Below, piece after piece: positions 12,101-62,389 of a stretch of 64,000 nucleotides of DNA. Position numbers and translations under genes: made by a program. The notes under the pieces were generated by a model. The model saw only the letters and a program-made list of their open reading frames with translations, was not told the DNA's origin and made no database searches. Source of the DNA: Blasia pusilla (taxonomy: Eukaryota); assembly GCA_050084515.1 (NCBI GenBank), contig CM114271.1, positions 1,798,001 to 1,862,000 on the forward strand, read 5' to 3'. Positions within the stretch are counted from its first letter, which is position 1. Each line of letters begins with the position of its first letter.

Positions 12101-12249
12101 CGTGTGATAGGGGCACGAGGGCAGTCACGGCGTCCTTTCAAGATTTTGAGAGGCGAGGTAGTGGACCTGAGAGTAGCTCTTGAGGGTTTACCCGGAGTGG
12201 TGCAAGGTTTCGAGGATCTCCACGTGAGAGACCACCTCGATCTCCTTCT

Positions 12250-16997: not shown

Positions 16998-18027
16998 TCC
17001 CAGAAGATTCCATCGGGAGGAGATTGAGAATAAGAATGAGGATAAAAATGGGATTGGGAATGAGAATGAGAATGAGAATGAGAATGTTTCATTTATAGTG
17101 AATAGGGACTCAGATTCTCTTGACAGAATTTGATTGACAAGATGAAGTTTGGTAGGTGAGAATGTATGACATGATGGATTCAATTCTGTTGCAACCTGAC
17201 AAAGTCCGATGGGTTGCATAATTTGGGAATCAGAGATGTGGGTTGCGAAGCACCCACTTCTATTTTTTGTTTCCGTGTCCCAATGCAAGTTGTAACCCGT
17301 CAGAGTCCGTTGGGTTGGTATCCCCTTCTTGCCAATCAATGGTCTTTTGAGTCAATTTTGCTAGCATCAAACACGAGAAATCGCTTGCATTTGCAAAGGC
17401 AACCAATCGTTGGGGACTTTTGCGGGATTGTCCAACTCAGGGTAGATGTTGTGACCCGTCGGATTGCTAAGGGTTGCCTCGGAACTATGCATTGTCGCAT
17501 TGTTACCCGAGGGATAGAAAAGCGGATCGCTAAGAAAAGCGCCATTACCCCAAGATAAAGCGCTGCAACCCGCCTCCGCGGTTGCCTGGTACCTCGCCTT
17601 ATTACCCCAAGATAAGCGTGCAACCCGTCGGCCCAGACGGGTTGCGGCTTTGTAACGCTTACATGAAGCGAAGGCCTCGTACAAGTTGCCTTCTTACCCA
17701 AAGACGGTGGAGGCGCGCAACCCGTTCGCCTCAGACGGGTTGCGCAAGTGCCTCGCCTTGTAACGCTTACATGAAGGAAGCGTGCAACCTGTCGGCCTGC
17801 GACGAGTTCCGTGGGTAGCCCGCGTTCTTTCCCGAAGATGGCGGAGGCGCGCAACCTGTCGGTTTCCGACAGGTTGCCAAGAGGACGGATGCCTGGAACC
17901 CGCGGAAAGCGTGCAACCCGTCGGAGCCGTCGGGTTGGTGTTTTTCACGTCCAGACTTCCATAACGGCCGACACGTCACCGTCAGAACGACAATGCGACC
18001 CAACGGTTAGCCCAACGACTCGAAAAG

Positions 18028-18035
18028 TATAAATA
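18028..18035 (+). promoter_or_regulatory. TATA box of the transposon cargo gene
   Basis: TATAAATA about 245 bp upstream of the ATG at 18274, within the divergent intergenic region. Confidence 0.5.
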
Positions 18036-18273
18036 GCCGAGGGTTCGCTCATTTCCCGTTTTTCGTTTCGCGATCTCAATTGCTCTTCCGCGCAGCGGCT
18101 GACCAGATACCAAGGGGTGCTTTACACGACGACTCATTGCGAGACGATTCGAGCTACTCATCAAGGTGACTCATCGCGACATCAGCAAGGCGACTCATCA
18201 AGACGACTCCTCAAGGCGACTAATCGTGCACAGAAAGCAATTTCCTTGTCCATAGGAGGCATTTTTGGGAACA

Positions 18274-21200
18274 ATGATGAGGAAAAAAACTCAAGCAAGC
18301 AAGGTTGGGAGCTTCACTCCCAAGGGTGGGAGGACTCCTGCATCACCATCTCTAGGGCCTCATTCGGCCAATGAGATAAGCCAGCAAGAAATCGAGGAGC
18401 GGGAAAGGGAAGTGGAGATGCACAAGCAGGAGCTTCTTGCAAAACGTTTTAAGGAGGCGCTCAAAAAACAGAACGCAAAGGCTGAGGCATCGCAGTCCTT
18501 GAAGAAAAGGATCGCTGATGAAAAGCGTGAGAAGAAGCGTCTGGACGCGTCGGTCAGGAGAGCGGAATTGGCAAAAGCTCGAAGGGAAAAAGCGATTGCC
18601 ATTGAAGAAAGCCCGGCCCGTCCAACCGAAAGTGTTGAGATGTAGGAAATGTCCCCAATGAAGTCCGAGGACACAATCAATATAGCGGAAACGGACAAAG
18701 TTCGAGTGACGGACGATGAGGTCATGAGGACCGCCAGCGTGGAGATGGTGAACATTGTTGAAGAAGCAAGAGAGCGGTCTTCCTCATCTCTTAGCCCGGC
18801 GGAAGAAATCGACCTCTATCGGATCGACAAGTTTCCAGTGGACTTGCCAACTGATGTCCCAGAGTAGTTGGTTGGCCAAGACACCGACCCAATCTTCGAG
18901 CGGTTAAGAAACGATCTTGGATCTTTGAGTTATGTGAAGGGCCATGTTGCAATTCATTGGCAATTCAGTGTAGTTTATTGACCTTATCCCTGTTGTGACA
19001 CATGGTAAAGCAGATGGCACTGATGGAGGGCTAGAACGCCCCGAGAATTCCACTTTTCCGATTGCGGACAATGGAGTACGTCCACAAAATTCAGTCTGAC
19101 GAGGATATTGCAAAGCTGAAACAATTAGTAGCGACAACATCCTACGTCGACAGCTTCCCTCCGTTCTATGTTCAGCCTTACGATGAATATGGAACCCAAG
19201 CGCTGGTTACGGAGGAGGACTTGGAAGCACTCGACACATTCTGGAGGATGAGAGATCAGGAATTCAGAAGGGCGATTGAGGGGACGGAATTCAGTTGGAT
19301 GCGGAACCTGTATTTCTTCATCTGGGATGGAAACCATAGGTTCATGGCGTGGACCCAGTTTGCAGAGGAGCGCCCAAACTCATTGGAGGTGCATTTTTGC
19401 GTGAAGGAAGTCGTGCTACATCCATACCCTCATCACATGGCGACGATGGAGATGGCAATGCATGCCATGAACACGTAAGTTTCCTCTTGCCGCACATCGT
19501 CGGACTCCGACAACTTGTTTGACTCGCCACTATTTTTGGCATGTTTTTGGCTCAAAGCAACTCGTTGGAGTCAGACGAGTTGCTCGACTAGCCGTTGTTT
19601 TAGGATGTTTTTTGCCGAAAGCAACTCGTCGGAGTCCGACGAGTTGTTCGACTGACCACGGGTTTAGGATGTTTTTGGCCGAAAGCAACTCGTTGGAGTC
19701 CGACGAGTTGCTCGACTGGCCGCTATTTTTGGATGTTTTTGGAAGAAAGCAACTTGTCGGAGTCCGACGAGTTGCTTGACTGGCCGCTATTTTTGGATAT
19801 TTTTGGCCGAAAGCAACTCGTCGGAGTCCGACAGGTTACATTCGCCGACACGGGAAGGTAATCGGAGTAGGGGAGTTTGATTTTTGGCGTCAAATTGCAA
19901 CTTTAATTGAAATTGCACAACGTGTTAGACTTCGACGGGTTGATATGTTCACTTTTCTTGCGGAGACAACTCTCTAAATACAAATTATTTGACAGCCCGT
20001 CGGAGTCCGATGGGTTGAAACCAGGCAATCACAAATCTGAATGCAATCCATCGATGGGTTAAAAAATTTAGCTCGTAGCTCCCATTCCGACCATGAGCTG
20101 TGACAACGTGTCGGAGTCCGACGGGTTGCAGGGACCCATGTAGCTTGCAAAAATTCTGATATTGAGTTTGGATGTGCAGGATTGTATCAGAGGGGAATGT
20201 CACCCAGCATTGGATCCATGATTGCGATCGGGTGAAGAAAGTGCTAACGACGCACCTGGCAGAGTACAAGGGGTTCTTGGGCGACGCCCTTGTAAATGAG
20301 ATGCTGGCAAAGGGTGCTCAAATAAAAAAAAGACTTGGGCAAATACATTTATTTCCCAAGATGCAACCGTGACAATCCTTTGCTGGTCAAAGATACAGGC
20401 CGCCAAGAAGAGCGCTGCATTGGAGCTAGAGCCGAGGGAGAAAGTGTATGTGTCTCAGCGTGCTAAATTCATCAAAGCTGCAATATCTGCAGGCACGAAG
20501 TACACGGCAAGCAAGATGCAGCGCTACATCGCCATTCTCAACCCCAAACTTGGCCCCGATTTCTACAAGGAGCTGAAGGGGATAATCAAGCGCCAGCGGA
20601 AGAGGGATGAAGATCCGTAGGGTCGGATTGGGGAGAAAGTGTCTCTCGATTGCGTGCATCGATTTTTCTTGTCCAGAATTTCAGAATTTAAGAGAATCCG
20701 ACTGATGAAAATCAGTCTCGAGGGCACAAAGGCCCAAAAGAGGGCAGCACACCATCCTCTGGGTGTATCTGATCCAGTGATCTCCCACTGGCTCCGTGAA
20801 TGGTCATTCTGGGACGGGTTGTGGCTTCTCGGGAAGTCCATGCTCATGGGTCTCCAAGCGGAGCTGAAAAGAATAGAGCCAGTTGCCGAGGAAGCAAACC
20901 TGGAGAGTGCTGAAGATTTTGAACTTTGGCTGGATGACATGCGGGACAAGCCCATAAAAAACCCAGGCTTCAGGACGATGTTCAAGGATCGCATCCTCCC
21001 TCAAGCAGACCTTGATGAAGAAATAGAGGCGAAGAAAAGGGATTTCGCAAAGAAGAAGCAGATCTTCAAGAGCAGGCGGCCAATGCATCTCGACTAAGAG
21101 CTGCCCAACGGATGGTGTTCAGGTACCTCGTCCATTGTAAGAATATAGGTACATGGCGAAAAATACCGGCAGCCTGAAAATTGTGGGCTTCTCCGCCTCA

Positions 21201-23240
21201 TGGAGAGACATTTTCCATGTACGACATGGAGATGGCTCAAAGCATGTCCGACTGGGAAGTGGAGAATTTCCGATCTGGCTGGACTTCAACGACCCTGAGG
21301 ACATAACCAAGAAAAATATATGCCTGTTCTATGATGCAATGACCGTAGGTAGGGACGACATCCCCAATTTTGTGCAGGCTGAAGACTTTTTCAAAGGAGA
21401 TGCGGAGGAGCAAGCCCTCGAGATAGCAGAGTTGGTGTCCAAGGTCGTCACCGCCAAGGACAAATCTACAACGGGTCTCAAAGCCAAGGCGAGGGATCGA
21501 AGAATTCCAAGGCCGAGTCTTCCCAAAGAGAGGTTGAGAATTCAAGGCGAGAGCCGAAATCGTCCGGGCAAGCGGGGAGACAAGGTCGGACCAGGTCCTC
21601 CGCAAAAAGAACTCCACTAGAGTCTGAGGTAATAGAGACCCCAACAAGCCGACCGCAGACTGTGGAGAAGCGGAAGCGAGAGGCGTCAGGGTTGTCCCAG
21701 GGAGCAGACCAGGATGTGGAATACACTCCATCATCCTTGGGAAGACATAGAGAAACAACGACCCGGACAAGCGTCATCATTCAATGCAGTAATCTTTTGG
21801 ATGAGCTGAAAAGTTTCAGTTCCCAAGCGTTGACACCTACCATCGAAAAATTGACAACGCTGGGACAGAAGCTTCAACGAACGGGCACGCTCCCTGGACG
21901 GCCCATGGGGAGGTCAAAGAGGTGGCGGTGGATCTCCTTGTCGTTGATTTGCCCTCGGGGTTGCGCTTGTGGGACGAGAATCCATCCGACGGGGTCCCAG
22001 ACTGGAATGTCCCTCTTTCTTATGACCAGATCGCACTCCTGTTTTTGTTTGCAAACGCTTATCTCAGTGACAGGGGCTGTTTCTTAGTTTTGACTGGAGG
22101 GAGCGAGGACAAGCTCTTCAACCACCAGTGCGTCAAGAGGTCGCTGAAGTAGAGGACGGCGCAATCGTGGTTCATGAAGAACGAGTATCCACTCCGATCC
22201 GCGACGAGTCAAATTCGGGTAAGGGCTCTAAATCCGTATCCAAATTTTCTTTCTCCGACAGGTTGCATCTCTGCATGCAACCCGTCGGATTGTTTGAGAC
22301 TAGAGACTTTGGTGGTGCAATCCGTCTGAAAGCAACGGGTTGCAAATTTACCATAAGTCTCCATTGGGTGAATGCAACCTGTCGGAACCCGAAGGGTTGC
22401 AGTGCTTATGCTTTTTCCTTGTGTTTCTGGAATGATGCAACCTGTCTGAGAGCAACGGATTGCTCTTAGCCAACCATAGGCTGCTCTAAGCCAACAACCT
22501 GTTGCCTTCCGACGGGTTGCTCATGGACAAAAAAATCACAAGCACTTGTAAAACAACCCGTCGGACTCTGACAGGTTGCTCCAATGTTAGGATTATAACG
22601 AAGTTCTATGGGATTAAGCGAAGTTCTTTGGGGACGTGTTGCATATTATGTCACCATACTGAGAGTAGACCAATGGTCAAGTAGCTCTTTCTCGTTGCTG
22701 ACATTGTTTCCAACGTGCTTCTTTACAGATGGACCACTCCTATGTTTACTGCTTTGTTCGGCCTGAGCACAACTTCCAAGTGTTTAAGATCCTGGATCTT
22801 GTGGATCCATGCTCCGATGGGTACAACTTAGATAGTTTATACAATTCCCCCCGGGAATTTACATGCAAGACGGTAACCCCTTACTTGGAGGAAGGGAAAA
22901 GTCGCGAGCCCTGATGCAAACGCTTATCGAGCTCTGCTCAAGGCCGAGTGACTTGGTGTTTGACTTAGTGGGCCTTTCAGAGGCGAGTATCAGAGGCGCA
23001 TGGCAGAGTGGCAGGAACATTCTCTACCTTGAGGGAAGGCAACAACTGTTTGACCTTTGGAAAGAGGCAAAGGCAGATTACGATAGGCTAGTTGGGGCGT
23101 ACAACTCTCCTTCGAAGCCGAGAGCTCCGGTTCCAGACCCACCATTGGTAGTGACACCATCGTCACTTCCCACGATTCCAAAAATCGGGAGGGCAAGGCC
23201 GACAATAAATCAGGAAGAGCTCTCGGACAATGACAAGTGA
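18274..23240 (+). pseudogene. Transposon cargo gene: coiled coil, ParB/Srx-like domain, and beta-class amino (N4-C/N6-A) DNA methyltransferase-like domain
   Basis: FFIWDGNHRFMAW (DGNHR at 19326-19340); VDLLVVDLPSG (motif IV-like, to 21960); GREKSRALMQTLIELCSRPSDLVFDLVGLSEASIRGAWQSGRNILYLE (motifs X-I-II-like, about 22890-23035). Frame-preserving GT-AG introns at 19475-20179 and 22219-22728. Stops and frameshifts present. Confidence 0.7.
19493..19838. repeat. 64-bp tandem array (about 5.5 units), each with the palindrome GCAACTCGTCGGAGTCCGACGAGTTGC
   Basis: Units start at 19493, 19557, 19621, 19685, 19749 and 19813, inside intron 1 of the cargo gene. Confidence 0.9.
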
Positions 23241-23280
23241 GTTCAAAGAACTCAAGGACCCAACTTGATTGCAACGTTTG

Positions 23281-24380
23281 GAGTAGGGATTTATTTGATG
23301 ATGAGGCAAAAGAATTCATAGAATAGATCAAATGTACAGTTTCGAGCTTCTTTCGGATGTAATAAAGGACAAGATTTTTTCGAACGATGATGGTGTTTGT
23401 AAAAGTTTGCTGAATATCTTTTTTGGTCTTGTCGAATATGATCGTCTATGCACTCGAGGACTTCTATTTTGCAACCCGTCGGATTTCCATGGCTTGCAAC
23501 TTTTCACTTTTTGACCACTACACCTTTTTAACCACTTCGAGGCAACCTTTCGGACTCTTTCCCTGTTGGTCCAACTTTAGAGGCATTCTGGCGGACTTCT
23601 TCACTTTGGCACCTTCCCCTAGTATCGTCAAACAAGGCGTAGGCTTCTTCTCTTCTCTAAGACGTGTTGGATTCCTACTACCTGTTGGATTGCCATCATG
23701 GAATTTCCAAGGACAGAGCACATATTGATACTGGATGAGTGTTACATTGCAGAGCGTACAAGATATACTGCCGAGGAAGGCAGTGGGACTCAAATTAGGT
23801 TACATGGGACCGTTATGGTGTACCTAGGGGGGGCCAAGGCTCTCCAATTCGCCAACATTTTCGATCCCCGTCTACAATCGGCCAGAGGAGCCACTTGTAT
23901 CCCAAGATATTCCTTTTGTACACGAACCTAGGAGAGTTAGGAGTAAATTTGTAGATGACGAGGCTGAAGAAATCATAGACTAGATCAAATGTACATTTCC
24001 GAGCTTCCTTCGGATGTAATAAAGGACGAGATTTTTTCAAACGATAACAGTGTTTGTAAAAGTTTGCTGAATATTTTTTTTGGACTTGTCGATTGTGTTC
24101 GTCTAGCTACTCAGAATGTTTATTTTGCAACCCGTCTGATTCCGACGTGTTGCAACTTTTCACTTTTTGACCACTGCAACTTTTCAACCCTTTCCAGGCA
24201 AGCTGTCGGATTCCAACAGGTTGGCTGCTTGAGTGATCGGACTCTTTCCTTGGGAGACCAAATTCTGAGGCATTGTGGCGGGCTTCTTCACTTTTGGCTC
24301 GTTCCCCTAGTATCATCAAACCAGTCTTAGGCTTCTTTTCTTCTCTAAGACGTGCTGGATTCCCAAACAGTTGGATTTTT
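23281..24380. repeat. Imperfect duplication of a roughly 420-440 bp block (23281-23700 and 23941-24380)
   Basis: Shared TAGATCAAATGTACA...CGAGCTTC.TTCGGATGTAATAAAGGAC...TGTTTGTAAAAGTTTGCTGAATAT...TTCTCTAAGACGTG.TGGATTCC. Confidence 0.85.
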
Positions 24381-25042
24381 GTGGGTGCAGGGTGGAATGG
24401 AATCACTTCTCAAAATCTTTCCTTTGTTATGGTGAGCTTGCTTGCAAGGGGTGCAAGCCATCTGATTCTGACGGGTTGCAAGAGTTGGAACCTGTTAAAT
24501 TCCGATGGGTTGGGAGGGGTGCAACTTCTCGATTTATCAGATTTAGGATCTGAATGAAGGGACATCAGTTCCTCTTTACTCCAGACAGCTAACAATCTTT
24601 TGGTTTAATTATCGTCTCCTGTGTTCACATTTCACAAAGTTGGTCTTTATTTGAACCTTTCATTGAGATGAGATTGCTACTTCTGGTCAAATTATTTGCC
24701 AATGGTCCTCCAACAAAAATCCCCCCACAGGCACAGTTCATTATCAGACTCGAGACAGCAATGTGAAGAAACTTAGGCTCACATGGAGAGTGATGGAAAA
24801 TTTTTGTAGTGGTCTTATGATGTCTACTTGTTTTTGCCCTCTGGAAAAAGGAGGTTTCTTTAGGCCCGAATAAGGACCACTACCTACTCTCTTCTAAAGA
24901 TTTCATGAATTTGAAAGCAAATAGAAATTTCAAATATGTCAAAAAGTTTTGAAGAGAGGAGGCACATTTGGCCCTTTTTATTTGAAGAGAGACTCTCCTC
25001 TCTTCCTCTCTCATGCCAGAATACCAGCCCCCCAGATATGCC

Positions 25043-27250
25043 CAAGAGATTGAGGCATGGCGACTCTACTATGACCCACACTATATGTCATGGATGGAGC
25101 CGTTCCGAGATGAGGAGGAGGAGTTAGGAGAGGCTACTTCCTCTTCCACTTGTGATGTTTTAGGAGGGGTCACTCGCACTGGAAGAGTTGGACCGTCTAG
25201 CCGGGTTCGTCCCAGGTTCAACCCCGTGGTTGTGTTCTTTGCTAAGTTGAGGGCGAGCTACTAGGGGTACAGACGGAGAAGTTGTGGAGCATCCATGACT
25301 TGCAGAGGTGCCCGGTGAGAGTTTGCATGAGGCTTACATTCGCTTGCGCCGGTTGATCAACGTCATTCAGGGGGTGACAGAGGCTCAGGCTATCCAGTCA
25401 TGGTATGCGATGCTGGACCGGATCTTGTGGACACGAGTACGAGAGGGGTGCTTCTTATGAACACCTCCCCTACGTTGAGAGACGGTTTTAGGACCGCCGA
25501 GAACATTGAGCGCAACATGGTGGAGGAGAGCGTAGCCACCATGGGTTCTAGGCGAGAGCAGTCACGATTATCTGCACCACGAGTACAACAACGTGGACTC
25601 CAAGAAAGGTCGAGTGTGGAACCATGAGCTCAAGGAGGATATCGGGAGGCCGTGCCGCAGAGACGTACGCCTTCATATGCGGGTCAGTAGCAGCCGCCTA
25701 CGATTACTTGTTGGTCATGTGGTGGAGCCCATCATCAGCGTGATTGCACTCATCAGGGACATGGACGTGTGCCTCAGCATGAACGAGGAGATGGTGCTGC
25801 ACCAAGAGGTTATCAGTGTGACTATTGTCAGAAGTATGGTCACACATGCACAAGGTGTTTCAGTTTACACCCTGAGTTATGTCCGAGCGAGGGCCAGAGA
25901 GGACACCACAGCAAGTTATTGGTCCGGGTGGGCCTAGAGGACGTGCACGAAGTGGTCTTATTGGGGGACGAGGAGGTGGAATTGCCCGACAGGGTGGTGG
26001 AGCTGCTAGTGGAGGAGGTAGAGTCCCACCACCTAGACGCGTCGAGGGAGACGTCAGGCGTGAGGTTGGGATAGCTGCTTAGATACAACAACTACAGGAG
26101 CAGATTGCCGGTATGGCATTGAGGTTACCCGATGCCGGATCCATGGCATTGACATCATATGGAGCACCCAAAGATATGGAGGATCCTGGTTGGATGTGCG
26201 GGGTTGCCCAGATGGAGGCCGCCATAGTTGTGACGCGTGGAGCAACCGCAGAGTTGGATCCACAGCGAGGGGAAGCCAGGAAATAGACCACGTTTCCTTA
26301 ATCTTTCACGTTGTGCGAGGCAATGAGGATCCCATCGATGGGTCTTGATCAAAGTTCCCGGAGAGTTAATGATATTATTGGTGTGCAGGCACGGAGGGAA
26401 ATGAGAGAAATGAGTGGGACGACTCCTATTGCTAATGCTCAGGAGGAGCATGTGTCGAGTACGATGTTGGGGGCAGCCACGATGGTGTACTATGCTCCGC
26501 TGTTTATTGCTTCCGATGTTATGACGTTGGGAGGTACGTCCGTCAAGGTTTTTTGGCTAGCCGCTATGCTATGTGAGCGTGGAGTTGGAGTTCTTGCATC
26601 ACGTTCAAAGGAGGTGATGGACCTGCCCTTGGCGCGGATGCTCAAGCCGTCCATGTTAGATTCATCATAGGTTACGGCTGCTAGGATGGTGGAGATGCTG
26701 GCTAGACCCGCGATAGAGCGTGCCATGGCTTCTCCTGGTGTTGTGTTGTTGGATAACCGGGGAGAGGTCTTCCAGTTGGTGAGTCTAGGAGGTAGAGCTT
26801 TTAGTCCACAGCGCGTCTTGTTGGATTCAGGAGCGCAATCCCTGATATTGGGGAAAGCGTTATTTAGAGGATTGGGCTTGAAAAGAGCCGATATGGAGCG
26901 TTGTCCATACAAACATCCTTGGGTGGAGCGAGTACCACACAGTGTATTACCCGACAAGAGATAGTGGTGAGGATTTGCCCAGGATATCCTACAGATGAGT
27001 TGTGGTGCGAGCCAAGGTGATAGTGATTGATGTAGAGTCCTACGACATCTTAGTTGGTGGAGCAGTGTTATACCTGATGGCGTTTTCCCTGGATTAATGG
27101 GAGGAGTCAGCATCCTACAAACCAGGATGGCAGTCAGGTGATGGGCGCTTTAGCTCATTACCTATTTGATTCACAGGTGCAATGATTGAGCGACGACGAG
27201 GAGAGATGGCGACCTTAGCAGCATTTAGCAATGCCATCACTTGGCCTAGT
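25043..27250 (+). pseudogene. gag 3' part (two zinc knuckles) and aspartic protease
   Basis: Knuckles CWSCGGAHHQRDC (about 25708) and CDYCQKYGHTCTRC (about 25817); protease motif RVLLDSGAQSLILG (about 26812). Confidence 0.85.
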
Positions 27251-27522
27251 GATTTGATTGAGGGGCATGTCCATGCAGAGGATATTCCCGTTCTTGACAT
27301 TTCTATGGAGAGGAGTGTCATGGTAGCCACATGAGTCCGTGGAGGAGAGGTGCCGCTTTGGGGCTCGACTGAGGAGCTTCGATGCTTAGCCACTTAGCAT
27401 GTGCAGACCGCGTGGAACGAGACGTTTGCACTAGAGTGTGACGGGTCAGACCCCAAATAGGCAAGAGTGCTGCTATGACTCTTTTGGACACCACCCCGAT
27501 TGTGTGGTGCATCCCAGAGGAG

Positions 27523-28480
27523 GATATTTGGGTGTTGGATTTCTTTGGAAGGATCAGCACTAGGTTAGCTGGTATTTTGCAGGCTGGAGTGCGTGTGCAG
27601 TAGTAGCTATATGTGGAGATTGATGATATTGCAAGGCGCGCTTCACTTCACCATGTGGCGTAATTACGCCTCTGTTTTCCAGACTTGTTGTATACGTCCG
27701 CCATTCCGGATTACCAGAGTTCCCTACCGAGGGACATTTCATTGTTGGGGGTGCAAGACTTAGAGCGGGTAGGGACCATAGACTTGGTCATTGGTGGTTG
27801 GCCATATCAGGGCCAGTCGAGTGCTAGACGGGGTATCGGATTAGTTGACTCTTGGTCCAGGTTGTTTTGGGAGATGATGCGGATCTTGCGACATTTGTAG
27901 GATCATCATTCTTATCCTCCACCATACATTGTGGAGAATGTGGCGATTTTGGGAGATTCGAGGTCCCGTGTGGTGACAAGTGTACATCAAGTGCGCGCAT
28001 GGATCGGCACGGCAATTTTGTTGGATGTGGCGAGTGTGGGTTCACGAGCACATCGCCCGCGTCTTTGGTGGACCAACTTGGTACCACACGAGGTGTTGCG
28101 GAGGGCATATGCGAGAGTGGAGCGCCCCTCCGATTTGTTGGTGGATTCTATATTGGATCCATGCCATCAATCACAGGCATTGAGGCTAAATGATCAACCT
28201 CTGTTGACTGTGGTCAACAGGATTGGCATGCCACGGGCAACCTTTCCTACATTGGTGAGTTTTCTTGCTTCCTATGCATTCAAGGAGGCCGGACCTGGCT
28301 TGGTTTGGGATGACCAAGTACAGAGGTTGGTTGAGCCCAACGCCGATGAGCAAGAGCGAGTGATGGGATTCCCCATAGGAGTGACGGCAGATACTGTCAC
28401 TATCAGAGGCATCATGACGTCATGTCTTGGGTCAGGCGATAGACCTGAATTGCTTGACATGGATTTTCAGCTTAGGAGTA
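27523..28480 (+). pseudogene. DNMT3-like C5-cytosine DNA methyltransferase domain inside pol
   Basis: Motifs in order: I VLDFFGRIS, II YVEID, III RDI, IV DLVIGGWPYQG (PC changed to PY), VI YIVENV, VIII SRAHRPRLWWTNL, IX EQERVMGFP, X LGQAIDLNCLTWIF (after a frameshift). Confidence 0.9.
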
Positions 28481-28859
28481 GCTGAGCAACGTCATTTGAG
28501 GATGCGACAGATCACAGAAGTTGCGTTGGTGAGCCCCATGCCTACCAAGACGGTTGAGGCAGTGGCTGGGGGCGAGACCCGAGGAGATTGACACACCAAG
28601 GGTGATCAGGAGAGACACCCTTGGACTTCTTGGGATGTTTTGCAGGTACGCTAAGAGATGGTAGCCACAACATCGAGCGTGGTTCCGGATACTGCACATG
28701 GATATCCAATTTTGCAGTTGGATGTAGGGGAGCAGTCGAGTTTTATTGTTCGAGATGGGGTTGCACCATAGCAACCACCGGCACCCACGCCGGATAGTCC
28801 TACCGTAGTCACGATGGAGACTTGGGAGCCAGATATGGGCCCTAAGTTGGCAGGAGGAG

Positions 28860-31823
28860 AGCGGCGCCGGATACACCAGTTCCTAAGGAGTTATAGGAGC
28901 TATTTTTCATTTAGTATGCATGATTTGGGTACGTTAAAGGGTCCAGGGATCCGCATTGAGTTGTCGAGTGACACGTCGATCTTCCGATGACCCTACAGGT
29001 ACAGTGACATGGAGAGGGCTTTGATTCAGAGTAGGAGCCAAGACTTGGTTGGAGCAGGACTAGTAGAGATGTCTTATGGAGAGTATGCATCTGCCACTGT
29101 CATGCCCGCCAAGAAGGATGTGCATGGCAACTCGACGGATAGGCGGATATGTGGAGATTACCGACCTATCAATTGGCAGACAAAGTCCGATAGGTATGCC
29201 ATGCCCACGCTTGAGGATATCTTTGATGCGATTGGGCATGCAAAGGTCTTCAGTTCATTGGATTTGCGAGCTTGATACCATCAGCTGCCTATATGATTGG
29301 AGACTGGCAGAAGACAACAGTTTGGGGCATCAATCCACACGGGAAGGATTGTTTGTACCAATGGCGGTTCTTACCGTTCGGGTTAAAGAACGCCCCGGCT
29401 GAGTTTCAGAGGGTCATGGATAGGATCTTGGCAGGTCTAGATTTTGCTAGGTGTTATATTGATGACATCTTTTGATGATTGCAGTTACATGGGCTGAAGC
29501 TACATCCAAGAAAGTGCATGTTCTTCTACGACCATATTGAGTACTTAGGTCATACGATATACCCAGGGGGCCTTGGTGTGCAGTGGACGAAGGTAGAGGC
29601 TATTTTCACGCATTCCACGCCCTACAAATATGAGTCGAGTTTGTGCATTCATGTGATTGGCAAGCTTCTATCGACCGTACGTCAAAGGGTTTTAGTTTGA
29701 TTGCAAAGCCGCTAACCTTGCTGACCAAAGTGGATCAAGAGTGGCAGTGGGGGGATGAGCAGGAGAGATCATTTCAGCTGCTCAAGGATAGATTGACGTC
29801 CCCGCCCATTTTGAGAAGACCAATCACGGGGCGTCCTTTCTAGTTGCATACCGATTGGAGTATGTTGGAGCTTCGAGCCGTGCTCACCCAACATGACGAT
29901 GATGGTAGAGAGTTTGTGGTGGCTTAAGCTAGTCGCTTGAACAACAATGCAAAGGCAAAGTATAGCGTGTATGAGGGTGAGTGCTTGGATGCAGTGTGGC
30001 TTGTTGCACATTTCAGATGTTATATATTCGGCAATCCCTTTACCATCATTTCTGATCATCAGCCACTTAAGTGGTTGATGGAGTTCGACAAGCTTACAGG
30101 GAAGCTTGTGAGGTGGGCTCTTTTGTTGCAAGAGTATGACTTCTAGGTGGTGCATAGACCTAGGACGCTCAACCAAGATGTAGAGGGTTTGAGCCGTAAT
30201 CCATGCTAGAGTCACCGAGATGCAACTGGAGCTTGTTGGCATGGTGAGAGTGATGAGGAGTTGGTGCCAAGATGACACACATCAGCTTATTTGGGCTTGT
30301 TGGCTATGGGGAGCCATATTGCTGAAACTTTGATGACGAGGTTGATGGAGAGTCCTTAGATCGAGAGGCCGGTGAGGATACGACAGGTGGCCGAGACATT
30401 CATGATGATGGAGTACCTGTGTACTAGCAACGTCGTGAGCACAATGGGTGCTAGAGAGCGAGATCAGATCCTACAGTGAGCCAAACGGTTCCGATGGGAG
30501 GGGACACATGTGTTGCGAGTGTGGGAGGATGGTCGAGTGCGTGTAGTTCCTCATCCTTCATAGAGAGCACGTTTGGTGCGTCATACCTACAAGGAGTTGG
30601 GTCATTTTGGAGTGAAGCAGACGTACAACTTGCTCCAAATTCAGTATTGGTGGCGACGCATGCAGAATGACGTTCAACAATTTTGTTGCCAGATGCATGG
30701 TGTGTGATCGAGTCCAAGCATCGTTCAATGCTCCGACTCCATAGTTGCATCCACTTTCGATCATGGGTTTAGGTTATAGACGGAGTTTGGATTTTGCAAG
30801 ACCTTTGCCTTTGACAGAGCGCCATAGTCGTTATGTGTTGGTGATGGTCGAGTACTTCTCGAAGTGGATAGAGTTTGTTGCATTGCTTGACAAAGCGAGT
30901 GAGGGAGTAGGATATGCCTTCCTCGATTGAGTGTTGAGTCATTACGGTGCACTAGCTGAGGTGTTGACAGACCAAGGTATAGAGTTCCACGGGGAGTTCA
31001 GGCCTTGTGTGATCAGGCACTGATCGACCATCGCACTACTTTGCGAGATCATCATGAAGCAAATGGACTAGCGGAGCGGGTTGTGCAGACAGTGAAGAGA
31101 GGACAACGCAAATATGGCTTGCAGAGAGGTCACCTAGGATATTAAGACCTCCACTTGCCGTGGTTGGCGATGGGATACAGATTCAGCAGGCAGGCATCCT
31201 TAGCGTCTTTCTCACCGTACTTGCTTTTGTATGGCTGAGAGCCAGATTTACCTGCGGCCATTTGTTGAGATGTTGGTGAGGTGTTGAACCTTGATGATCT
31301 GATGTATGGATGCGAGCATGTTCTTAGAGGGCTGAATTATTTCGGAGAGTGATGCCCATGGTGTTTGAGAACTTGGCGATTGCGCAACATTGGGATACAT
31401 TGAGGTATGTGACTATTTGGGGGATGGTTATCAATCTACTATCCGGAGGTTTCATAAAGGAGACTATGTCTACTTGCAGCAGACGGCACCCACGACGTTG
31501 GATGTGACTGTAGGGCGCACCATCTTGAGAGTGTGTGAGGTTTTGCCATCAAGTGTTCTCTTATTGGAAGGACGCGATTGTATGGTTTGGAAGGACTATG
31601 TGTGTAACTATGCGCAGTGTCACCTTCCGAACATTGATGGTTTGATTAATCGAGCTTAGCAGTAGTTCTTGCAGGCTTGCGATGTATGTTATGTGGTTCT
31701 ACCCGTGGTGCAGCCACTATGCTAGTCTGTGATGGATGTTCGAGAGGATGGCATATGGCATGTTTGACGCCACCTCTCACTAGGGTTCCTCAGGGACGAT
31801 GGATGAGTTCCAGATGTACATAG
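28860..31823 (+). pseudogene. Reverse transcriptase, RNase H, integrase and PHD finger
   Basis: RT: RRICGDYRPIN, FSSLDL, LPFGLKNAPAEFQ, YIDD. RNase H: HTDWS, YSVYEGECL, SDHQPLKWL. Integrase: LDFARPLP, VEYFSKW, TDQGIEF, NGLAER. PHD: CMLCGSTRGAATMLVCDGCSRGWHMACLTPPL. Confidence 0.95.
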
Positions 31824-32726
31824 CATAGGTAGTTCTACATTCCTACTTGTGTCTGTGAGATGGATGACAAGAAGGCGACTAACGATGGGGCCACATGAGC
31901 ACCCGGCTTTCTTGCTCTTAGTGTCCGAGAGATGTATGTCATGGTTGGTAGGGATAGATGGCTATATGGAGTTAGAGGGACCTAACCACCAGCTAGGGGG
32001 GTGATTGGAGATATTTTCATACTTCTTGTCTCATTGTTTGGATGCCATGAGTTAGCATGGGATCGTGTGTGTGTTCGGTGACAGCGATGTGAATGTGCAT
32101 GACAACACCTTTGTGTTTGACATATGGTGGTGGAACAAGAAGAAATATTTTGGTGCAAGAAAATATGTTTTTGAATTTTTGGGAAATCATTTATTTTCTA
32201 TGGGGAAGGATGCAAGAAGTCTAAGTTTTTTTTTTTGTTTATTAAGTTATTGTAGACCACCATACACGAATGGATGATATTTTGGATTTGTTTGGCTTTG
32301 ACACGTGTCTTTGCTTCAAATTAAAACAGATTATGTAATAGTTTTCGCCCTACACACTATTTTCTATGCACAATATTATTTGTTACACAAGCACCTTTCC
32401 AATATATAGAAACATAGACCAATACAATATGCAACCTCCTTCATGTGAGGTTAACAAATTCTACAAATTGCATTTCTTATGTGATTTCCCCATTTGTTGT
32501 ACTTCTCATGGGTTCCCCCATCTCCCTTACATGCAAGGGAAACATGAAAGTGGGCATGGTAGGAAAGTCTTCACCAAATCTAGAGTGACTTCGTTGGAGA
32601 CTTGGATCCTCATGAACATAAAACTGTATTGCTCTGCGATTTTTGGCATTCATTATGGGCAATGGAAACTTGAAAGTGGGAAGAGAGTTTCCTCTCCAAA
32701 TTGGATTGACTCCTTTAGATGTTTTT

Positions 32727-32967
32727 GATCCTAAGGGCTAGATCCCATGCATGTGGGGTCGCGGCGACCATAAATGGTCGCCAATTTTTCTGCGCCCAAA
32801 ACTTTTGGGCGCAGAAATGGCTCAGCATCCTAGCGACCTCAACCTAGATGATAACTGAAAGTAGTTATGAAGTACCCATTCATTTTGTACTTTTTCCATT
32901 GGAAAATTTTTTTGGGCGCAAAAATGAGGTCGCCGCAACCTCCGTGCGTGTCCATGGGATTAGGATC
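32727..32967. mobile_element. MITE-like element
   Basis: Imperfect terminal inverted repeats GATCCTAA...ATCCCATG...GGT.GCGGCGACC, and internal palindromes such as TTTCTGCGCCCAAAACTTTTGGGCGCAGAAA. Confidence 0.55.
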
Positions 32968-33323
32968 TAAGAGTTGGATAACTTGGATCCTAGGTGGGTA
33001 GCGTCCTTACCACCCATTGTTGAATTTTCCAAGCCCAAAATTTTTGGACATAGGAAATATCCAATGACTCTCATAAGGGCTTTTGCTATGTTATTATATG
33101 TATCTATATTATAATTGGCTACCCAATAGGACAAAATAGTGATATAATAAGACAAAATAATAATAACTTTGAAGTTTTGAACCTTAATTCACACTTGATA
33201 AGGATTAATCACCCTTATAAGGTACACGTTGTTGTTTTTGCTCATCATGTAGGCTATCAACGTGTATATTAGTTACTTTCTTCCCCCACCCCTCTCAAAG
33301 GCCGCACACCGGTTACTTATCTA

Positions 33324-33569
33324 CTAGTAAGGACCAGTGCGATATACGGATCCCTTATTAATAGTTTATGCCTAAACGTAACTCTCCTTACCAATTTTTA
33401 TATGACCCCCTTCAAAGGGGGTCATATAAAATTGAAAGAAGACCCAAAGTATTTTTGAAAGAAGTTTAGTGATACGTGTCAGACCCAAAGTATTTTTGAA
33501 AGAAGTTTAGTGATACGTGTCAGACAGAGGAGGAGCTATAGAAACTGCACTCTCCAATAATAACATAGA
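33324..33569 (-). mobile_element. Non-autonomous mini-Helitron
   Basis: Minus strand A|TCTATGTTATTATTGGAGAGTG ... subterminal hairpin, CTAG|T. Contains a 41-bp tandem duplication (33440-33521) and a 17-bp-stem hairpin near 33396-33431. Confidence 0.7.
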
Positions 33570-35954
33570 TAATATATTGGAGAGTGCCTTGTTGATTTGC
33601 AAACACCTCTTTGATTGACATGTGACAACTGGACAACAAGAAAATATTTACCCCTTACAGATAACAAGAAAAAGATTTTGTGTGGAACATGATTAGTCCC
33701 TTCATTCGTGTGCATGGTATGAGCTGCCCACTAGTCATTTTGGTGCGCAAGCACGTGCATGTTCACTAGTTATTATATGGTTAGTTTGGATGGCCGCCGC
33801 TACTTGCACAACCTTGGGATTCGACCCTTAGGATCAGAAACATGTCAAGCATTTTATTCCAATTCGGAGAGGGCGTTCTTGCCATCCCACTTTCAAGTTT
33901 CCATTTTGCAGTTCTACATAATGAATGTGGAACTGCTCCACTCCACTCTTTATGGCCCCTACTGTATTTGAGCCGCGAGTGCATGGGCTGCAAAAGAAAA
34001 GTCATTTTACAGAATTCTCAATCCTCCCATGTGAATTTATGGATAATTTATGTCCTTTCCGAACTAATTACTCCCCCGTGTTAATATTAATGCTTTCCCC
34101 ACAATAATATTAACGCTTTCCCATGCTTCTTCTCGCCGTGTTGTATTCTCTTACCATCATGTTACCCTCTAAGTTGCATCCCACGGTGTTAGGCTTTGCC
34201 CTCGTTTCCCACCGTATCAGTCTAGTCTCCTACCCCATTAGTCCTAAACCCTCTCCCTGAACCCTATTTAAAAACCCGTAATACATAGTTCAATCGCTCC
34301 ACGATTTCCGGCGAGTCAGGCGGCGGACAAGATTGGATCGCTTGTCATAATCCGGAGTCATTCGGGTCCGATTCGTTCTAATGGGATCGTGAGTGAGATG
34401 GTGGACATGTGGAAACTGCGGAGTTAGTCCGATGGAACTCATTCGAACGGGATGGGGAGTGGGAAGCCGGACGAAATCGAACTGCCCCTTGTAATAGGAA
34501 GCAGTTCAGGTCGAGTTCGTTGATCCCAGGGAGTATTAGAGCTGCCTACATCCGAGTTCAGCTATGAGGTTGCGGTGGAAACCCTAGTCCGATTAGATCA
34601 GGTCTGGAAATGAAAGTGCGAGTGTGGTAGACATAAGGATCCACGTTGAGTAGCTTTCATTGCGCGTACCTTAGCTTTCGTAGCGCATAGGTGTTCGCAA
34701 TGGAGGGGTCGAGTATGGTGGCCGCCACAAATGGAAATCCGCTCTACTCAGGATATGAGCCGTGCAGTATTGGAAGGCGAAGTGAAGCGAGAGATCATCC
34801 TCAAACTTGCATGGCTGCATCGAAGGAGAGTGGTAGCGAAACTGACATAGCTGCAGGGTGTCAACCCAACTGAGCAGTAGATGCCCACCGTATGACAACG
34901 ACTTCCAAGAATTATGCTCGGTGCAGCCTTTTCGACATCTTGATGACAAAGGGGCTAGTTGTTGGCATCCACCATCCGAATTGAGCTTTCATAGGCTGGC
35001 AAAGCCACAACCACTTCACTGCAAGAATAGCATGCATACGTAATCCAGACTAGATCACACGACAGTTCAAAAGAGATGAACAATACGAAGGGGAAATGAT
35101 GGTTGAGAGTACAAAGCATGTAAGTGGGCAGAGGGTGAAAATTTCGAGAGTCGATATCAAATGATTGAAGATCCATCCAAGGATTCGCACAGAACTTAAG
35201 TCGCGGGCACTGGCCGATGTAAATATCTAAAAATCACGATATGGAGTACAAAGACATGGGATCCATTTTATCGTCCACACAGATTCTGAAAGAAGAGGGA
35301 CTGGGCTAACTGTTGTGCAAGGTTTGCCCGTTAAATCTATTTTATTGGTAGAATCTTGGACTACTTATCTAAGGCCTCATATGCGATTGCTTACACCGCA
35401 CCAGAACTCCCTCTCAAAAATAGTTCAACTCCATCCTAATACACCTAAACCATGCGCCTTCGAATCTTGCATTGATTTCAAGTAAATTACATCGGTTGCT
35501 AATTAGCATTTGGCCATTGGACAGCTTACGTCTAACAAATAATCCATTGAAAAAATGGAGATGCACCCCAGCTGACATTCAGACTCTTTGGGTATCAACT
35601 TTTCTGACTGATAGCTACCAATTTGTCGACACTATCTACCACGGCAGATAATAGAATTGCTTTCTCTGTTAATTGCTTGGGCCTGATGGACTCCAGGCCA
35701 TCCACACTATTTTCTGAGCCGTTTCCAAAAGTGCAAGAAACACTGATTGCTTGCAGCCCATTATAACGAGGTGAAAGCACCTTATGGTGACTTTCACATT
35801 GATTTCTTATCCACTGAGATTACTAACAGATCATATGACAGTCATAGTTCTGCTAGAGTGGACATCCATTCAGAAACTCCTGGCTAGCATTCCTCAGATC
35901 ATCAGCATTTGACATGCCGGCTAAAAGCCTAACCACAGGTGTCCACATCACACA

Positions 35955-38900
35955 CTAATCATCTTCATCACTGTCACTCACTACCACCCGCCTCCTCTGA
36001 GTGGATTTTCTTGGGGGTGACACATCGCGTTCGTAGTCTCTGTCACGCTGCCTCTTCCTATCTTCGTCATCCCTGTCATTTCTTCTCCTCTCCTGAAAAT
36101 TTCAGACAAAAATGAACGGAAAAAGTCAACAACTGCTAGTGGCAAAGTTGGGCCCAATACCAGTACTTCAGAACAAAGACGGTACATATACCCTTAGAGA
36201 TAGATTGCAGACCTGGGTAGAGCATATCCTTTTATGCTTCAATCTATGGGTCAGCCCACCTTGTAGAGAGGACCACAGTTCTGAATCCCTCTTCCTCCCT
36301 CACCCCATCAAACTTCTTCCTGAAAAAAACCAATTACCTCACGATGTGTAGTCTTTCCCTTGTCGGACCATTTTCTAGAATCCTCCTCTTCTTCCTCTTC
36401 TTCATCATCCTCATACTCCCTCTCTTCTTCCTCCAATGGAAGCTCTTCTTCGTCCTCAGGATCAGTCTCATATGCCGATTCTTCTCGCTCCTCCTCTGAA
36501 GTATCTTCAAGCATTTCCCGTCTGGAGGGTGCATGCCGTCTGTCCTTGACTGGGGGCCTCCTGGGAGGTGGTGCTTGCTGCACGATAGAGTGATTTTGAT
36601 CAATACAAGTAACCAAGATGTGCCAGTCACGAGACTTAAAAAGCGTGTATACACATGAACTTCAAACATCATCATTCAAACGACAGTGGCTGAAAGTTGA
36701 AAGCTTTCAACTGTCACATGAACGAAATAATTGAAGTACTTACTCCCAAATGAAAAACATGTAGTTGAGTAAGATTACAGAGTGTACATCCTTCACCTCA
36801 TCAGCAGCAAAATTTCTTCGTGCTTTCTATCATAACACTCCAAAGCTCTCAAGTCTTTGCCACTACAAACAAACGTTTGTTTTCCTATTTGAATTGGTGA
36901 GGAGATAGACATACCCGCTTAGCATTTAAAATCCGTCTTTCAGCTCCTCTCTCTGCCTCAAACTGCTGGAAACGACGTGTATCATTTCCTCTCCTACTGC
37001 CTCCCCCATAGTCATCAGCTTCTTCCTCCTGAGTAGACAGGACAATTGGAGACTATCATTCAGGCAAATACTGGTGGGGACAAGGAGTGACTACCATGTC
37101 AGAGCAACCTCTCCGATCACATTGCCTTTTCCTTGCAGTGTAGATGTACTGAAAAAATCAAACTTTGACACCAGCACGATGACACAGGATAGGAGCAGAG
37201 CTTCTTGCTAACATATAGAGCAAGCATTAGTTAGGATATGAGACTGGAGTAACGAAGCAAGCACGATAAATTTTTTTTTGCTGCCAAAGCGCCACTTAGA
37301 TTCTCATCAGTCAACAATCAATTGAGCTGGCAACCACCCACATTTGTGATTAAAAAGAGACATTCTCTATCGATTTTGGGATATAAGGAACTTCATTAGC
37401 TCACCTCTTCCAAAGCACCCTCAAGGTAGCCAGGAGATAGCTGTGCCTCTCGGTCCCGACTCGGCATGTGACTATACTTGCGAGTGATTTTATCTTGTTT
37501 CCGCTGCAGGTCTGACTTGCTTCTAATGCGTTGTTCCACAGCCTATACAAAGAAAGTAAGATCAATCATCAGTCTAACTATTGCTGTGGACAAGTACCTC
37601 ACAACTGAACCCTATTTGCCTCGGAATAGGTAAAAAGAACCCTAGACCGATTGTTCACTTCCTTATTAGGCTACATGTAAAACGAACTAATTTATAAGGT
37701 GAAAAAGGTGTACCTTCTCCTGTCCCTCTTTCTCTTTGTCAGGGTCAATATTTGTGACTATATTCTTTACTTTCAACACCTTCTTGTGCCTCGAGTCCAC
37801 AAGGGCAGTAAGCAATTTATGTGATTTGGATGACAAGGACGATGGCATGAACTTCATTTTGCGAAGAAGTCGTCCTTGTGATTGCAGAAGACTCTGCAAA
37901 CAAAATCAACTCCAACAATGTTACGTATTTGTTCCATAAATTTTAACATGTGTTAGCAAGGTTCAGATAATTAATTGTACACCTAATCTCCTCTCCCTGC
38001 GTACCATTTCTTAAGTCATCTTCTCTCTTTCAGAACTTTACCTTTGGATGTCGGATAAAAAGATGCGACTGATCATGGTGAGCATTTTGGACAGAAAGAT
38101 CCAAGACTTCACTACCAAGAAGCAATTGCATGCTCCCATCTGACCACTTCACAAACCTTGCATTGCTCTCATACTGCACCAATTTACCAACGAAGAAAAG
38201 TTATTTCTAGGTGGCAAACAGTGGATAGAATTTCAACTGCAGTGGTAGGGCACTACTCAATCCTTACATAGGACATTAGTCCAACAAGTGCCACAATGGA
38301 TGGTAAGCAAAGAAGTAATCATGCAAATCCTTGCTTCCAACCTCCTTGATTTGATAGTGTTGTTTCCAGGGTAATATTGGAAATGAGCATGACCTTTGTA
38401 TACACCTTAAATGTAGATCCTTCAAATCCAACCACACAATTCCTGAAACTTTCTAGCCATGTTGAGAACCTGAGAGATCACATCTATGCACTGAAACTAC
38501 ATTCCCTTCGACAATTTGGTAACACTACTCACAGATGTGCCTCCATCTCGACTCTGAACAATGCGCCATCGTGCAACATTTTCTTCAAGTCGTAAACGTT
38601 GTTTACGTCCCTCAGCATCAGTGACAAAAGTTGACTCCTCCACATACGTCTTCGGATCAAAAGGTTTAGGTTCTATGCCCATGATGTTTGAGACCCTCAC
38701 AAGATTGAGCTGCCCAAAAAAGAATATCAAATCACTTAGCCAAGAGTTTGAATTCCATTATTTACACTGTCTACATATCCAATATGGCAGTAAACGATGA
38801 GATGGTCATATGCAGAAAGATAGTGATCCATAGGTAACTAGTAAATGAGAAGAAAACATCAGAAATGATACAATGATTAGTGAACCAAAAGAGTAGGCAC

Positions 38901-57650: not shown

Positions 57651-57721
57651 GGATATTTGGATGACATGATGTAAGTCTTCATTTTGCGATTTGTATTGGC
57701 GTGGCGTAGTCATCAGCCGCT

Positions 57722-62362: not shown

Positions 62363-62389
62363 TAGGCGGGCCTCAGGACGGCTTCTTTT

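Follow-up and report, generated by a model that had tools for sequence, protein, structure and literature searches.

The window analysed here is a 64,000-nucleotide stretch of the Blasia pusilla genome (contig CM114271.1, positions 1,798,001 to 1,862,000 of the forward strand), and all positions below are counted from its first letter. It holds a retrotransposon copy that carries a DNMT3-like C5 cytosine methyltransferase domain between its protease (PR) and its reverse transcriptase (RT). The stretch at 27523-28480 is very probably the methyltransferase domain of an old and broken copy of a Ty3/gypsy-type long terminal repeat (LTR) retrotransposon. A Pfam run on 24001-32501, translated in all three forward frames, returned, along the + strand, DNA_methylase, RVT_1, RT_RNaseH, Integrase_H2C2, rve and a PHD finger, and the Ty3/gypsy pol order of protease, RT, RNase H (RH) and integrase (INT) is present on this strand of the window. 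The polyproteins of a relative with an intact domain (L021), of Marchantia and of Calypogeia are collinear with the window across several segments in tblastn searches. The coding order of the family is gag (CCHC), protease, DNMT3-like C5-methyltransferase, an in-frame stop, RT, RNase H, integrase and PHD finger (Table 1).

Table 1. Features of the DNMT-carrying element and of related sequence in the window (ORF, open reading frame; aa, amino acids).
Feature	Position	Strand	Evidence
Second-copy fragment, integrase C-terminus to PHD	3-377	+	75% nucleotide identity to 31445-31823; P0260 aa 1542-1667 at 50% (tblastn)
N-terminal gag fragment, severed by insertion	12187-12552	+	L021 aa 53-173, 43% identity, E 3e-22
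About 12.5 kb of other repetitive DNA inside gag (putative nested insertion)	12553-25036		gap between contiguous query segments
Gag, two CCHC zinc knuckles at 25709-25858	25037-25918	+	tblastn matches collinear with the ORF1 of relatives
Protease region, retropepsin motif LLDSGAQ, DSG at 26824-26832	26062-27430	+	ORF 26671-26964; L021 aa 469-948 collinear
DNMT3-like C5 cytosine methyltransferase domain, inactivated	27484-28389	+	PF00145; DNMT3A/B top PDB matches; L021 62% identity; four in-frame stops
TAT (Tyr) where the motif IV catalytic Cys is expected	27805-27807	+	direct read; aligned column is Cys in relatives
Conserved stop and context TAG CAA CCA between DNMT linker and RT, candidate readthrough site	28769-28777	+	direct read
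Reverse transcriptase, frameshifted pieces	28778-29692	+	RVT_1 at 29302-29472, E 1.3e-9; L021 aa 1274-1720 in three frames
RNase H	29748-30137	+	RT_RNaseH E 1.9e-27; RT_RNaseH_2 E 1.3e-24
Integrase: H2C2 zinc domain 30555-30689, catalytic core 30802-30990	30555-30990	+	L021 tblastn, 59-77% identity
PHD finger, integrase C-terminus	31683-31817	+	PF00628, E 8.1e-8, 32.6 bits vs cut-off 24
3' limit of family-level sequence in the window copy	32090-32274	+	genomic depth drop; read joints at 32072 and 32090

The gag region of the window copy is found in two pieces. Amino acids 172-453 of L021 pick up at 25037 and are contiguous in the query with amino acids 53-173, which match 12187-12552; residues 8-74 of the Marchantia ORF1 match 12352-12552 at 64-65%. 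Since the two pieces join without a gap in the query though they lie 12.5 kb apart in the window, an insertion of repetitive DNA appears to have split gag. Across 22001-24802 the genomic reads reach a depth of 580-1,220, and + strand RNA reads are found there as well. A duplication of about 400 bp lies inside the insertion (23297-23691 and 23954-24377), and one of its units is missing from many family reads, the joints of which skip about 660 bp. Minus-strand ORFs of 200-286 aa at 14932-17944 in the insertion gave no Pfam match. Farther downstream, the zinc knuckles CWSCGGAHHQRDC and CDYCQKYGHTCTRC of gag lie within ORF 25691-26074, and zf-CCHC is likewise found in L021. Relatives have a Pfam PF13650 match at the position of the window protease region. 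The zinc domain of the integrase matches Integrase_H2C2 at E 7.4e-10, and the rve match of its core (E 0.0021) lies under the curated cut-off.

At the 3' side, the genomic depth of about 2,000 in bin 31808-32274 gives way to 0.06 in bin 32275-32741, and more than 1,000 reads continue into other sequence at 32072 and 32090. Given this abrupt end and the reads that run elsewhere, the window copy seems to be without its 3' end. One point counts against assigning it to LTR elements: neither self-BLAST of the window nor a sensitive BLAST of 31801-32400 against 1-25100 revealed an LTR pair. In the family, LTR pairs about 8.7 kb apart are present in the relatives L041 (342 bp, 92% identical, with TG..CA ends) and L005, and the family is therefore made up of ordinary LTR elements about 9 kb long. 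The CpG observed/expected ratio of the window element (0.68 vs a window average of 0.70) gives no separate signal of methylation decay. The nearly intact related sequence L021:321-6809 is strongly CpG-depleted (observed/expected 0.28, TpG+CpA 1.43), while the window copy and other relatives range from 0.56 to 0.68.

The frame 1 translation of 27523-28480 is C5-methyltransferase-like, with FFGRIST, GGWPYQ, IVENV, AHRPRLWWTNL and ERVMGFP in the canonical motif order, and matches Pfam DNA_methylase PF00145 (E 1e-5; 25.6 bits vs a cut-off of 22). Among PDB sequences, DNMT3A/3B stood on top (E 4e-6 to 5e-5) and DRM2 reached merely E 0.85. In the alignment of the window domain with DNMT3A, SRAHRPRLWWTNLV lies opposite SAAHRARYFWGNLP of DNMT3A, and DEQERVMGFPIGVT opposite TEMERVFGFPVHYT. 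The L021 protein gave a tblastn match of 62% identity over 302 residues (27484-28389, + strand, E 0), which is far above chance. No Pfam match to PWWP or ADD, the reader domains of animal DNMT3A/B, was obtained in the window frames, L021, P0260, P0170 and other relatives.

An earlier note on this DNA had seen the C5-methyltransferase motifs in order inside the polyprotein region, between the protease and the RT of a Ty3-type pol, had likened motifs VIII and IX to DNMT3, and had set the motif order apart from the permuted one of DRM. These readings are borne out: the frame 1 translation and the PF00145 match agree, the Pfam order and the collinear tblastn matches confirm the position within pol, the likeness of motifs VIII and IX is visible in the printed alignment with DNMT3A (DNMT3A/3B being the best PDB sequences), and DRM2 aligns in a permuted register only, whereas the domain is collinear with DNMT3A. 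The Tyr noted in place of the catalytic Cys was also read directly. The interpretation of the note stands insofar as it proposed a DNMT3-like, non-permuted domain in a real retrotransposon lineage, but it understated the damage of this copy. The domain carries four in-frame stops, and in its motif I FGR replaces the FGG of relatives. At 28391 an additional base, which 842 of 1207 family reads do not have, shifts the frame ahead of the RT. The conserved catalytic residues (Cys of motif IV and Glu of motif VI) are found in the family, while the window copy has Tyr, FGR and the four stops. The window copy cannot encode an active enzyme and is a dead relic with no function of its own.

The affinity of the family domain was assessed with a family profile against PDB enzymes (DNMT3A/B/C, DRM, DNMT2 and M.HaeIII), host plant DNMT3 lying outside this set. 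The best match was DNMT3A (E 5.9e-19), with motif I, motifs IV-VIII and motifs IX-X as collinear stretches. DNMT3B/3C matched at about 1e-16, DRM enzymes at 6e-12 to 6e-11 in a permuted register only (DRM2 5.8e-11), M.HaeIII at 3e-6 and DNMT2 at 1e-5 to 2e-4. A DRM-type enzyme was rejected, since DRM2 was weaker and aligned only through a circular permutation. An AlphaFold (AF2) model of the intact L021 domain, computed with 46 sequences, had a mean predicted local distance difference test score (pLDDT) of 95.3; an earlier AF2 model of P0002 with 18 sequences (pLDDT 47) was discarded. When the L021 model was compared with the PDB by Foldseek, all matches among the best 50, those listed, were DNMT3A/3B/3C (E from 2.5e-20), and the target-normalised template modelling (TM) score to catalytic-domain-only chains was 0.79-0.84. 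These comparisons indicate that the family domain is DNMT3-like, with motifs I, IV, VI, VIII, IX and X in canonical order.

A search with the window domain returned 61 proteins of near length and nine longer ones, at 50-62% identity. Close relatives with a named host come from land plants (Calypogeia fissa, three Sphagnum species, Riccia sorocarpa and Marchantia polymorpha), and other hosts known by name include Scenedesmus sp. PABB004, Haematococcus lacustris, Mesostigma viride and Sphagnum fallax. An 18-domain profile run against 1.84 billion cluster representatives gave 8,627 matches at E<=1e-3 and 382 at E<=1e-30, many of them polyproteins of 1,000-3,456 aa, and 60 metagenome loci with a related domain were fetched. 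Two loci with 34-41% identity (L057 and L058) were dropped, as they contained no ORF of at least 120 aa. The order gag-PR-DNMT is common to Marchantia, Calypogeia, Sphagnum, Mesostigma and many metagenome contigs. L021 has one open frame over 6.5 kb save two stops, with zf-CCHC, DNA_methylase, RVT_1, RNase H and integrase matches, and in L021, L003 and L005 the DNMT lies in one frame with gag-PR and RT. A non-rearranged DNMT3-type domain in frame within the polyprotein, as in Gypsy-DNMT3 elements, is therewith found in the family, and the window copy is collinear with it though broken.

Public reads of the same species were mapped to 22001-36000 at a likeness of at least 80%, about 1/100 of the genomic run being used; genomic depths are given with both orientations summed. 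Depth was 1,300-3,150 across 24803-32274 and 1,680-2,370 over the DNMT bins, compared with about 0.9-2 in 34143-36000. The DNMT bins are thus about 1,000 times deeper than the flanking sequence and equal to the RT and INT bins. The family is present in the species at roughly 10^3 copy-equivalents, a number that is rough because many reads align only in part, which speaks against leaning on it too closely. The read depth also suggests a genome of about 1-2 Gb.

Selection was assessed in an alignment of 203 domains guided by a hidden Markov model, in which 42 rows have the order PR-DNMT (type A) and 105 the order RT-RH-DNMT-INT (type B). Of the 42 type-A rows, 41 have the catalytic Cys, as does every motif class listed for the 105 type-B rows (PCQ or ECQ), and the Glu of motif VI is nearly invariant. 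In type-B rows (P0170, P0116, P0091 and others) motif IV is mostly ECQ and not PCQ, and motif VI is ENT/ENA and not ENV. Ratios of nonsynonymous to synonymous substitutions (dN/dS) were determined by the Nei-Gojobori method on a 335-codon core of 25 loci. They were 0.06-0.23 between the window and the loci (22 of the 25 pairs, dS being saturated in the other three) and 0.16-0.27 between L021 and the L003 group; as dS between lineages is saturated (>=1.6), these ratios are rough, though far below 1. Among dead copies of a single group, dN/dS was 0.43-0.85, as expected for decay after insertion. The sequence WPCQ is kept in 19 of the 25 loci, and three of them have a core without a stop. These ratios and the kept residues indicate that purifying selection has preserved the methyltransferase domain, its catalytic Cys and Glu included.

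These data bear on the possibility that a host DNMT3 fragment was captured once, in or beside a single copy, and plays no part in the life of the family. The 64-kb window has one DNMT domain only, and this domain is full of stops, as such a capture would have it. The depth of the DNMT bins, equal to that of RT and INT, the order gag-PR-DNMT-RT in Marchantia, Calypogeia, Sphagnum and the 60 metagenome loci, and the purifying selection on the domain all argue against it, and we regard a one-off capture as extremely improbable. A host DNMT3 gene lying beside a transposon was rejected on the same three grounds of family-wide depth, conserved order in relatives and purifying selection. Two outcomes that the earlier note had named as fatal to its idea are contradicted as well: restriction of the domain to a single copy by the copy-equivalents in the genomic reads of the species, and a family-wide dN/dS near 1 with no intact Cys by the values of 0.06-0.27 and the Cys in type-A rows. 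The many copies (depth 1,680-2,370 vs a baseline of about 1-2) and the selection on their domain go together, and the DNMT-carrying element is a real retrotransposon lineage.

In three RNA runs of one study, reads covered the whole element mainly in one orientation (28-73 vs 1-6 over the DNMT bins), and the depth climbed to about 200 near the 3' end of the element. The orientation seen is that of sense RNA in most stranded libraries, and the family is transcribed on the sense strand. Since most RNA reads are less than 95% like the window copy, their source is other copies.

The family might nevertheless be extinct in this genome, with all of its copies relics and the RNA a product of read-through or of silenced-repeat transcription. 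We consider this a serious possibility, although the odds are somewhat against it. Only 206 of the 161,022 mapped genomic reads are at least 99% like the window copy and 116,299 are below 90%, which indicates that the family is old and diverse. At sites where the window copy differs from at least one fifth of the reads, it has A/T against G/C of the family 640 times and G/C against A/T 324 times, an excess that points to C-to-T decay of this copy. The metagenome relatives are mostly broken, an open DNMT core being limited to the three loci mentioned above. Extinction is opposed by the strong sense-strand bias of the RNA over the whole element in all three runs, by the many family reads that lack several of the frameshifts of the window copy, and by intact ORF1s of 1,280-1,335 aa in related clusters.

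An in-frame stop lies about 100 residues past motif X, just ahead of the RT, and occupies the same codon in the window and in 37 of the 38 loci covering this position. It is mostly TAG and is TAA in 7-8 loci; the exceptions are TAC in L013 and a stop out of register in L030. CAA follows directly in all loci but L044 (TAA), and is itself followed by CCC, CCA, CCT, CTA or CTC. The end of ORF1, the stop and the start of ORF2 share one frame in 36 of the 38 loci, and the stop-CAA hexamer is kept among three lineages in which the flanking codons diverge. The ORF1 proteins (gag-PR-DNMT, 1,159-1,437 aa) of Marchantia, Calypogeia and several metagenome clusters end at this stop, and the single Marchantia model that fuses DNMT to RT skips the linker and the stop. 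The conserved TAG/TAA-CAA-CCN stop after the methyltransferase is a new feature.

UAG CAR YYA is an established leaky-stop signal of tobamoviruses in plants, and UAG/UAA-CAA contexts are established leaky signals there (PMC2754532). The window and L021 (TAG CAA CCA) as well as L052/53 (TAG CAA CTA) fit CAR YYA, while most loci (TAG/TAA CAA CCC) are off at the last base. The stop is a candidate for programmed readthrough, which would place the methyltransferase on the Gag side, and the kept frame and hexamer tip the balance slightly in favour of this reading. Several observations pull the other way. CCC in most loci departs from YYA; no conserved RNA structure was found 3' of the stop (consensus -7.4 kcal/mol, almost no covariation); loci of the L001 type have an ATG two codons past the stop, so that reinitiation is conceivable there; the outer type-A lineages P0262, P0095 and P0237 are single ORFs without the stop; and overlapping assemblies account for many near-duplicates among the 38 loci, which thus amount to about three independent lineages plus the protein ends. 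The departure from YYA, the ATG of the L001-type loci and the lack of a conserved downstream structure would also suit a true terminator, with ORF2 (RT-RH-INT-PHD) expressed through reinitiation, splicing or a separate transcript. This alternative appears rather unlikely, since ORF1 end, stop and ORF2 start are held in one frame, the ATG is missing in the window, L021 and L052/53, the hexamer is kept while neighbouring codons vary, and UAG/UAA-CAA is known to be leaky in plants (PMC2754532).

On the readthrough reading, a leaky TAG/TAA-CAA-CCN stop in working copies would yield Gag-PR-DNMT as the abundant product and a version extended by RT-RH-INT-PHD as the minor one. The position on the Gag side would place the methyltransferase in the particle at Gag-like amounts. 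The enzyme, freed by the protease or particle-borne with Gag, could then methylate the new DNA of the element around the time of integration. Chromoviruses are Ty3/gypsy elements with a chromodomain after the integrase. The window family resembles them in having a small chromatin-reader module at the integrase C-terminus and differs in that the module is a PHD finger (PF00628), which would replace the chromodomain and is likely to be a chromatin reader steering integration. Identity, the inferred readthrough, the inferred methylation of complementary DNA (cDNA) and guidance by the PHD finger, taken together, are likely to form the best overall explanation of the element. It counts against this explanation that the variant positions listed (40 of 2,504) do not include 27806 and reveal no copy of this genome with an intact Cys and open frames.

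Self-methylation of reverse-transcribed DNA was put forward as a hypothesis by de Mendoza et al. (2018; PMC5890265). By analogy, cDNA self-methylation might be the selected function of the domain, a suggestion we make tentatively and with somewhat less than even confidence. Two points weigh against it: the DNMT domain of the Klebsormidium nitens Gypsy element, the only Gypsy DNMT3 domain put to experiment, gave no methylation in yeast, a result that its authors called inconclusive (PMC5890265), and the evidence on the present family consists of anatomy, abundance, transcription and selection, the enzyme activity of every member being predicted from sequence. Alternatively, the domain may be kept for another role, such as formation of 5-methylcytosine in the genomic RNA, methylation of host DNA near insertions that damps the element's own expression, or non-catalytic DNA binding. 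The inactivity of the K. nitens domain on yeast DNA would suit such roles, and RNA methylation and self-limitation are named as options in the text of the same paper (PMC5890265). The domain also lies on the Gag side, the usual place of nucleic-acid-binding proteins in retroelements. A non-catalytic role is opposed by the conserved catalytic Cys and motif VI Glu. Also on the opposing side, the fold and sequence of the domain are nearest to the DNA enzymes DNMT3A/B, the tRNA enzyme DNMT2 being far weaker in the profile comparison given above. We consider such another role possible but unlikely on balance.

The DNMT domain occurs in two architectures. Among 280 proteins with a domain match, 59 have PR-DNMT (followed by RT-RH-INT where present), 108 have RT-RH-DNMT-INT and 113 show the domain alone; both architectures end in the PHD finger after the integrase. 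The PR-DNMT order is found in named streptophytes (Marchantia, Calypogeia, Sphagnum and Mesostigma) and RT-RH-DNMT-INT in named chlorophytes (Scenedesmus and Haematococcus). In a FastTree tree of the 203 domains, one change suffices for the architecture labels, and all 42 type-A rows lie inside one clade of 73 rows (support 99). The window falls in a 21-row clade (support 100), in which it is sister to the rows of liverworts, mosses and related metagenomes. The tree was rooted at its midpoint, without a host DNMT3 outgroup, which limits its weight for a single origin; because of this rooting, one capture followed by relocation and two captures from similar sources both fit it.

It is conceivable, although speculative and on present evidence unlikely in full, that an ancient Ty3/gypsy lineage of green plants and algae carried both a DNMT3 and an integrase-linked PHD finger, that the DNMT moved once, that a leaky stop arose in the land-plant branch and brought the methyltransferase to Gag-like amounts, and that the elements came to supply much de novo methyltransferase beside that of the host genes, with which they exchanged DNMT3. 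If true, chlorophytes would have the DNMT after RNase H and ahead of the integrase, and streptophytes, land plants among them, would have it following the protease. With about 10^3 transcribed copies in this plant, the elements could then add substantial de novo methyltransferase to that of the host genes, and elements and host genes could have swapped DNMT3 sequence during plant evolution.

Compared with known systems, the relatives of chlorophyte type, from chlorophytes and metagenomes (such as the pol of Scenedesmus sp. PABB004 and Haematococcus lacustris QJQ45_005506), have a homologous DNMT (E 1e-60 to 1e-75 to the profile), an RT-RH-INT backbone and a C-terminal PHD finger; unlike the window family, they have the order RT-RH-DNMT-INT, are single ORFs without the stop and stand one branch apart on the DNMT tree. 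Animal DNMT3A/3B/3C (PDB 6w89, 6u8p and 8tci) are the best matches in sequence and fold, with collinear motifs I-X and the shared patterns AHRxR..W.NL and ERxxGFP, but identity is about 20% and the family is without PWWP or ADD by Pfam. The target-recognition region of the family is about 60 residues longer than that of animal DNMT3 (a 349-residue model vs chains of about 285 residues). Plant DRM2 (PDB 7l4c and 4onj) belongs to the same superfamily and is a plant de novo methyltransferase; unlike the family, it shows a circular permutation, as profile positions 30-157 alone align, namely to its C-terminal residues 225-350. Gammaretroviruses use readthrough between gag and pol. The type I leaky stop of tobamoviruses likewise has an in-frame UAG, CAA and a pyrimidine-rich codon between an abundant product and a polymerase, as described in the source cited (PMC2754532). 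Both viral stops differ from the stop of the family, which has CCC as second codon in most relatives and follows protease and methyltransferase instead of coming directly after gag.

The window family belongs to the already known Gypsy-DNMT3 kind, which is represented by KnitGypsy-Dnmt3 of K. nitens (PMC5890265) and cited in general terms for "streptophytes" in PMC12344493 and bioRxiv 10.64898/2026.05.21.726589. The comparison with KnitGypsy-Dnmt3 rests on its published description in the text of PMC5890265 and not on its sequence. Both elements are of the LTR Gypsy type with an intronless, non-rearranged DNMT3-type domain in the polyprotein, key residues are conserved in both, with a Ka/Ks below 0.2 given for KnitGypsy-Dnmt3, and both hosts are streptophytes. 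According to that text, the K. nitens copies are few and have a DIRS-like repeat layout, whereas the Blasia family has about 10^3 copy-equivalents and the window relatives have plain LTR pairs (PMC5890265). The position of the domain, a PHD finger and an internal stop go unmentioned in the text proper of the paper, where "PHD" occurs 0 times (PMC5890265). No K. nitens protein was found by name among the named relatives, the cluster representatives bearing no names. In the full-text literature, taken without subscription journals, figures and supplements, we found no explicit report of a DNMT-carrying Gypsy element for bryophytes or land plants, and none of a PHD finger, of two architectures or of a conserved stop in Gypsy-DNMT3 elements. 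Depending on the make-up of the K. nitens element, these family-level features may set the family apart within its kind.

Retrotransposons with a host silencing enzyme are a recognised oddity, documented in dinoflagellates and one charophyte, where copies are said to be few. Here, Gypsy-DNMT3 elements are numerous in a large plant genome and are expressed as RNA. Its annotated and apparently unremarked relatives in the model bryophytes Marchantia and Sphagnum make the function genetically testable there. Censuses and phylogenies of plant DNMT3 need to separate transposon copies from host genes, and the stop after the methyltransferase offers a concrete, testable idea on the amount of enzyme relative to RT and integrase.

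Apart from the element, RNA reads were found at 33209-33675 in both orientations and at 35544-36000 opposite to the element, which suggests other transcribed units nearby. Another repeat is present in two copies (6078-7653 and 41740-43387) that are 73-75% identical and 35.7 kb apart; the latter overlaps the minus-strand ORF 42542-43609, which has a weak RVT_1 match (E 0.002). Tandem arrays lie at 61416-63441 (units of about 18/91/145 bp and of 84-206 bp), at 56.9-57.3 kb (56810-57659, 63-bp unit) and at 19.5-19.9 kb (19497-19854, 64-bp unit). The only clear non-repeat coding sequence seen in the window is a 252-aa open stretch on the minus strand (48453-49208), which matches Pfam aldehyde dehydrogenase (E 2e-25) and probably belongs to a host gene as one of its exons.

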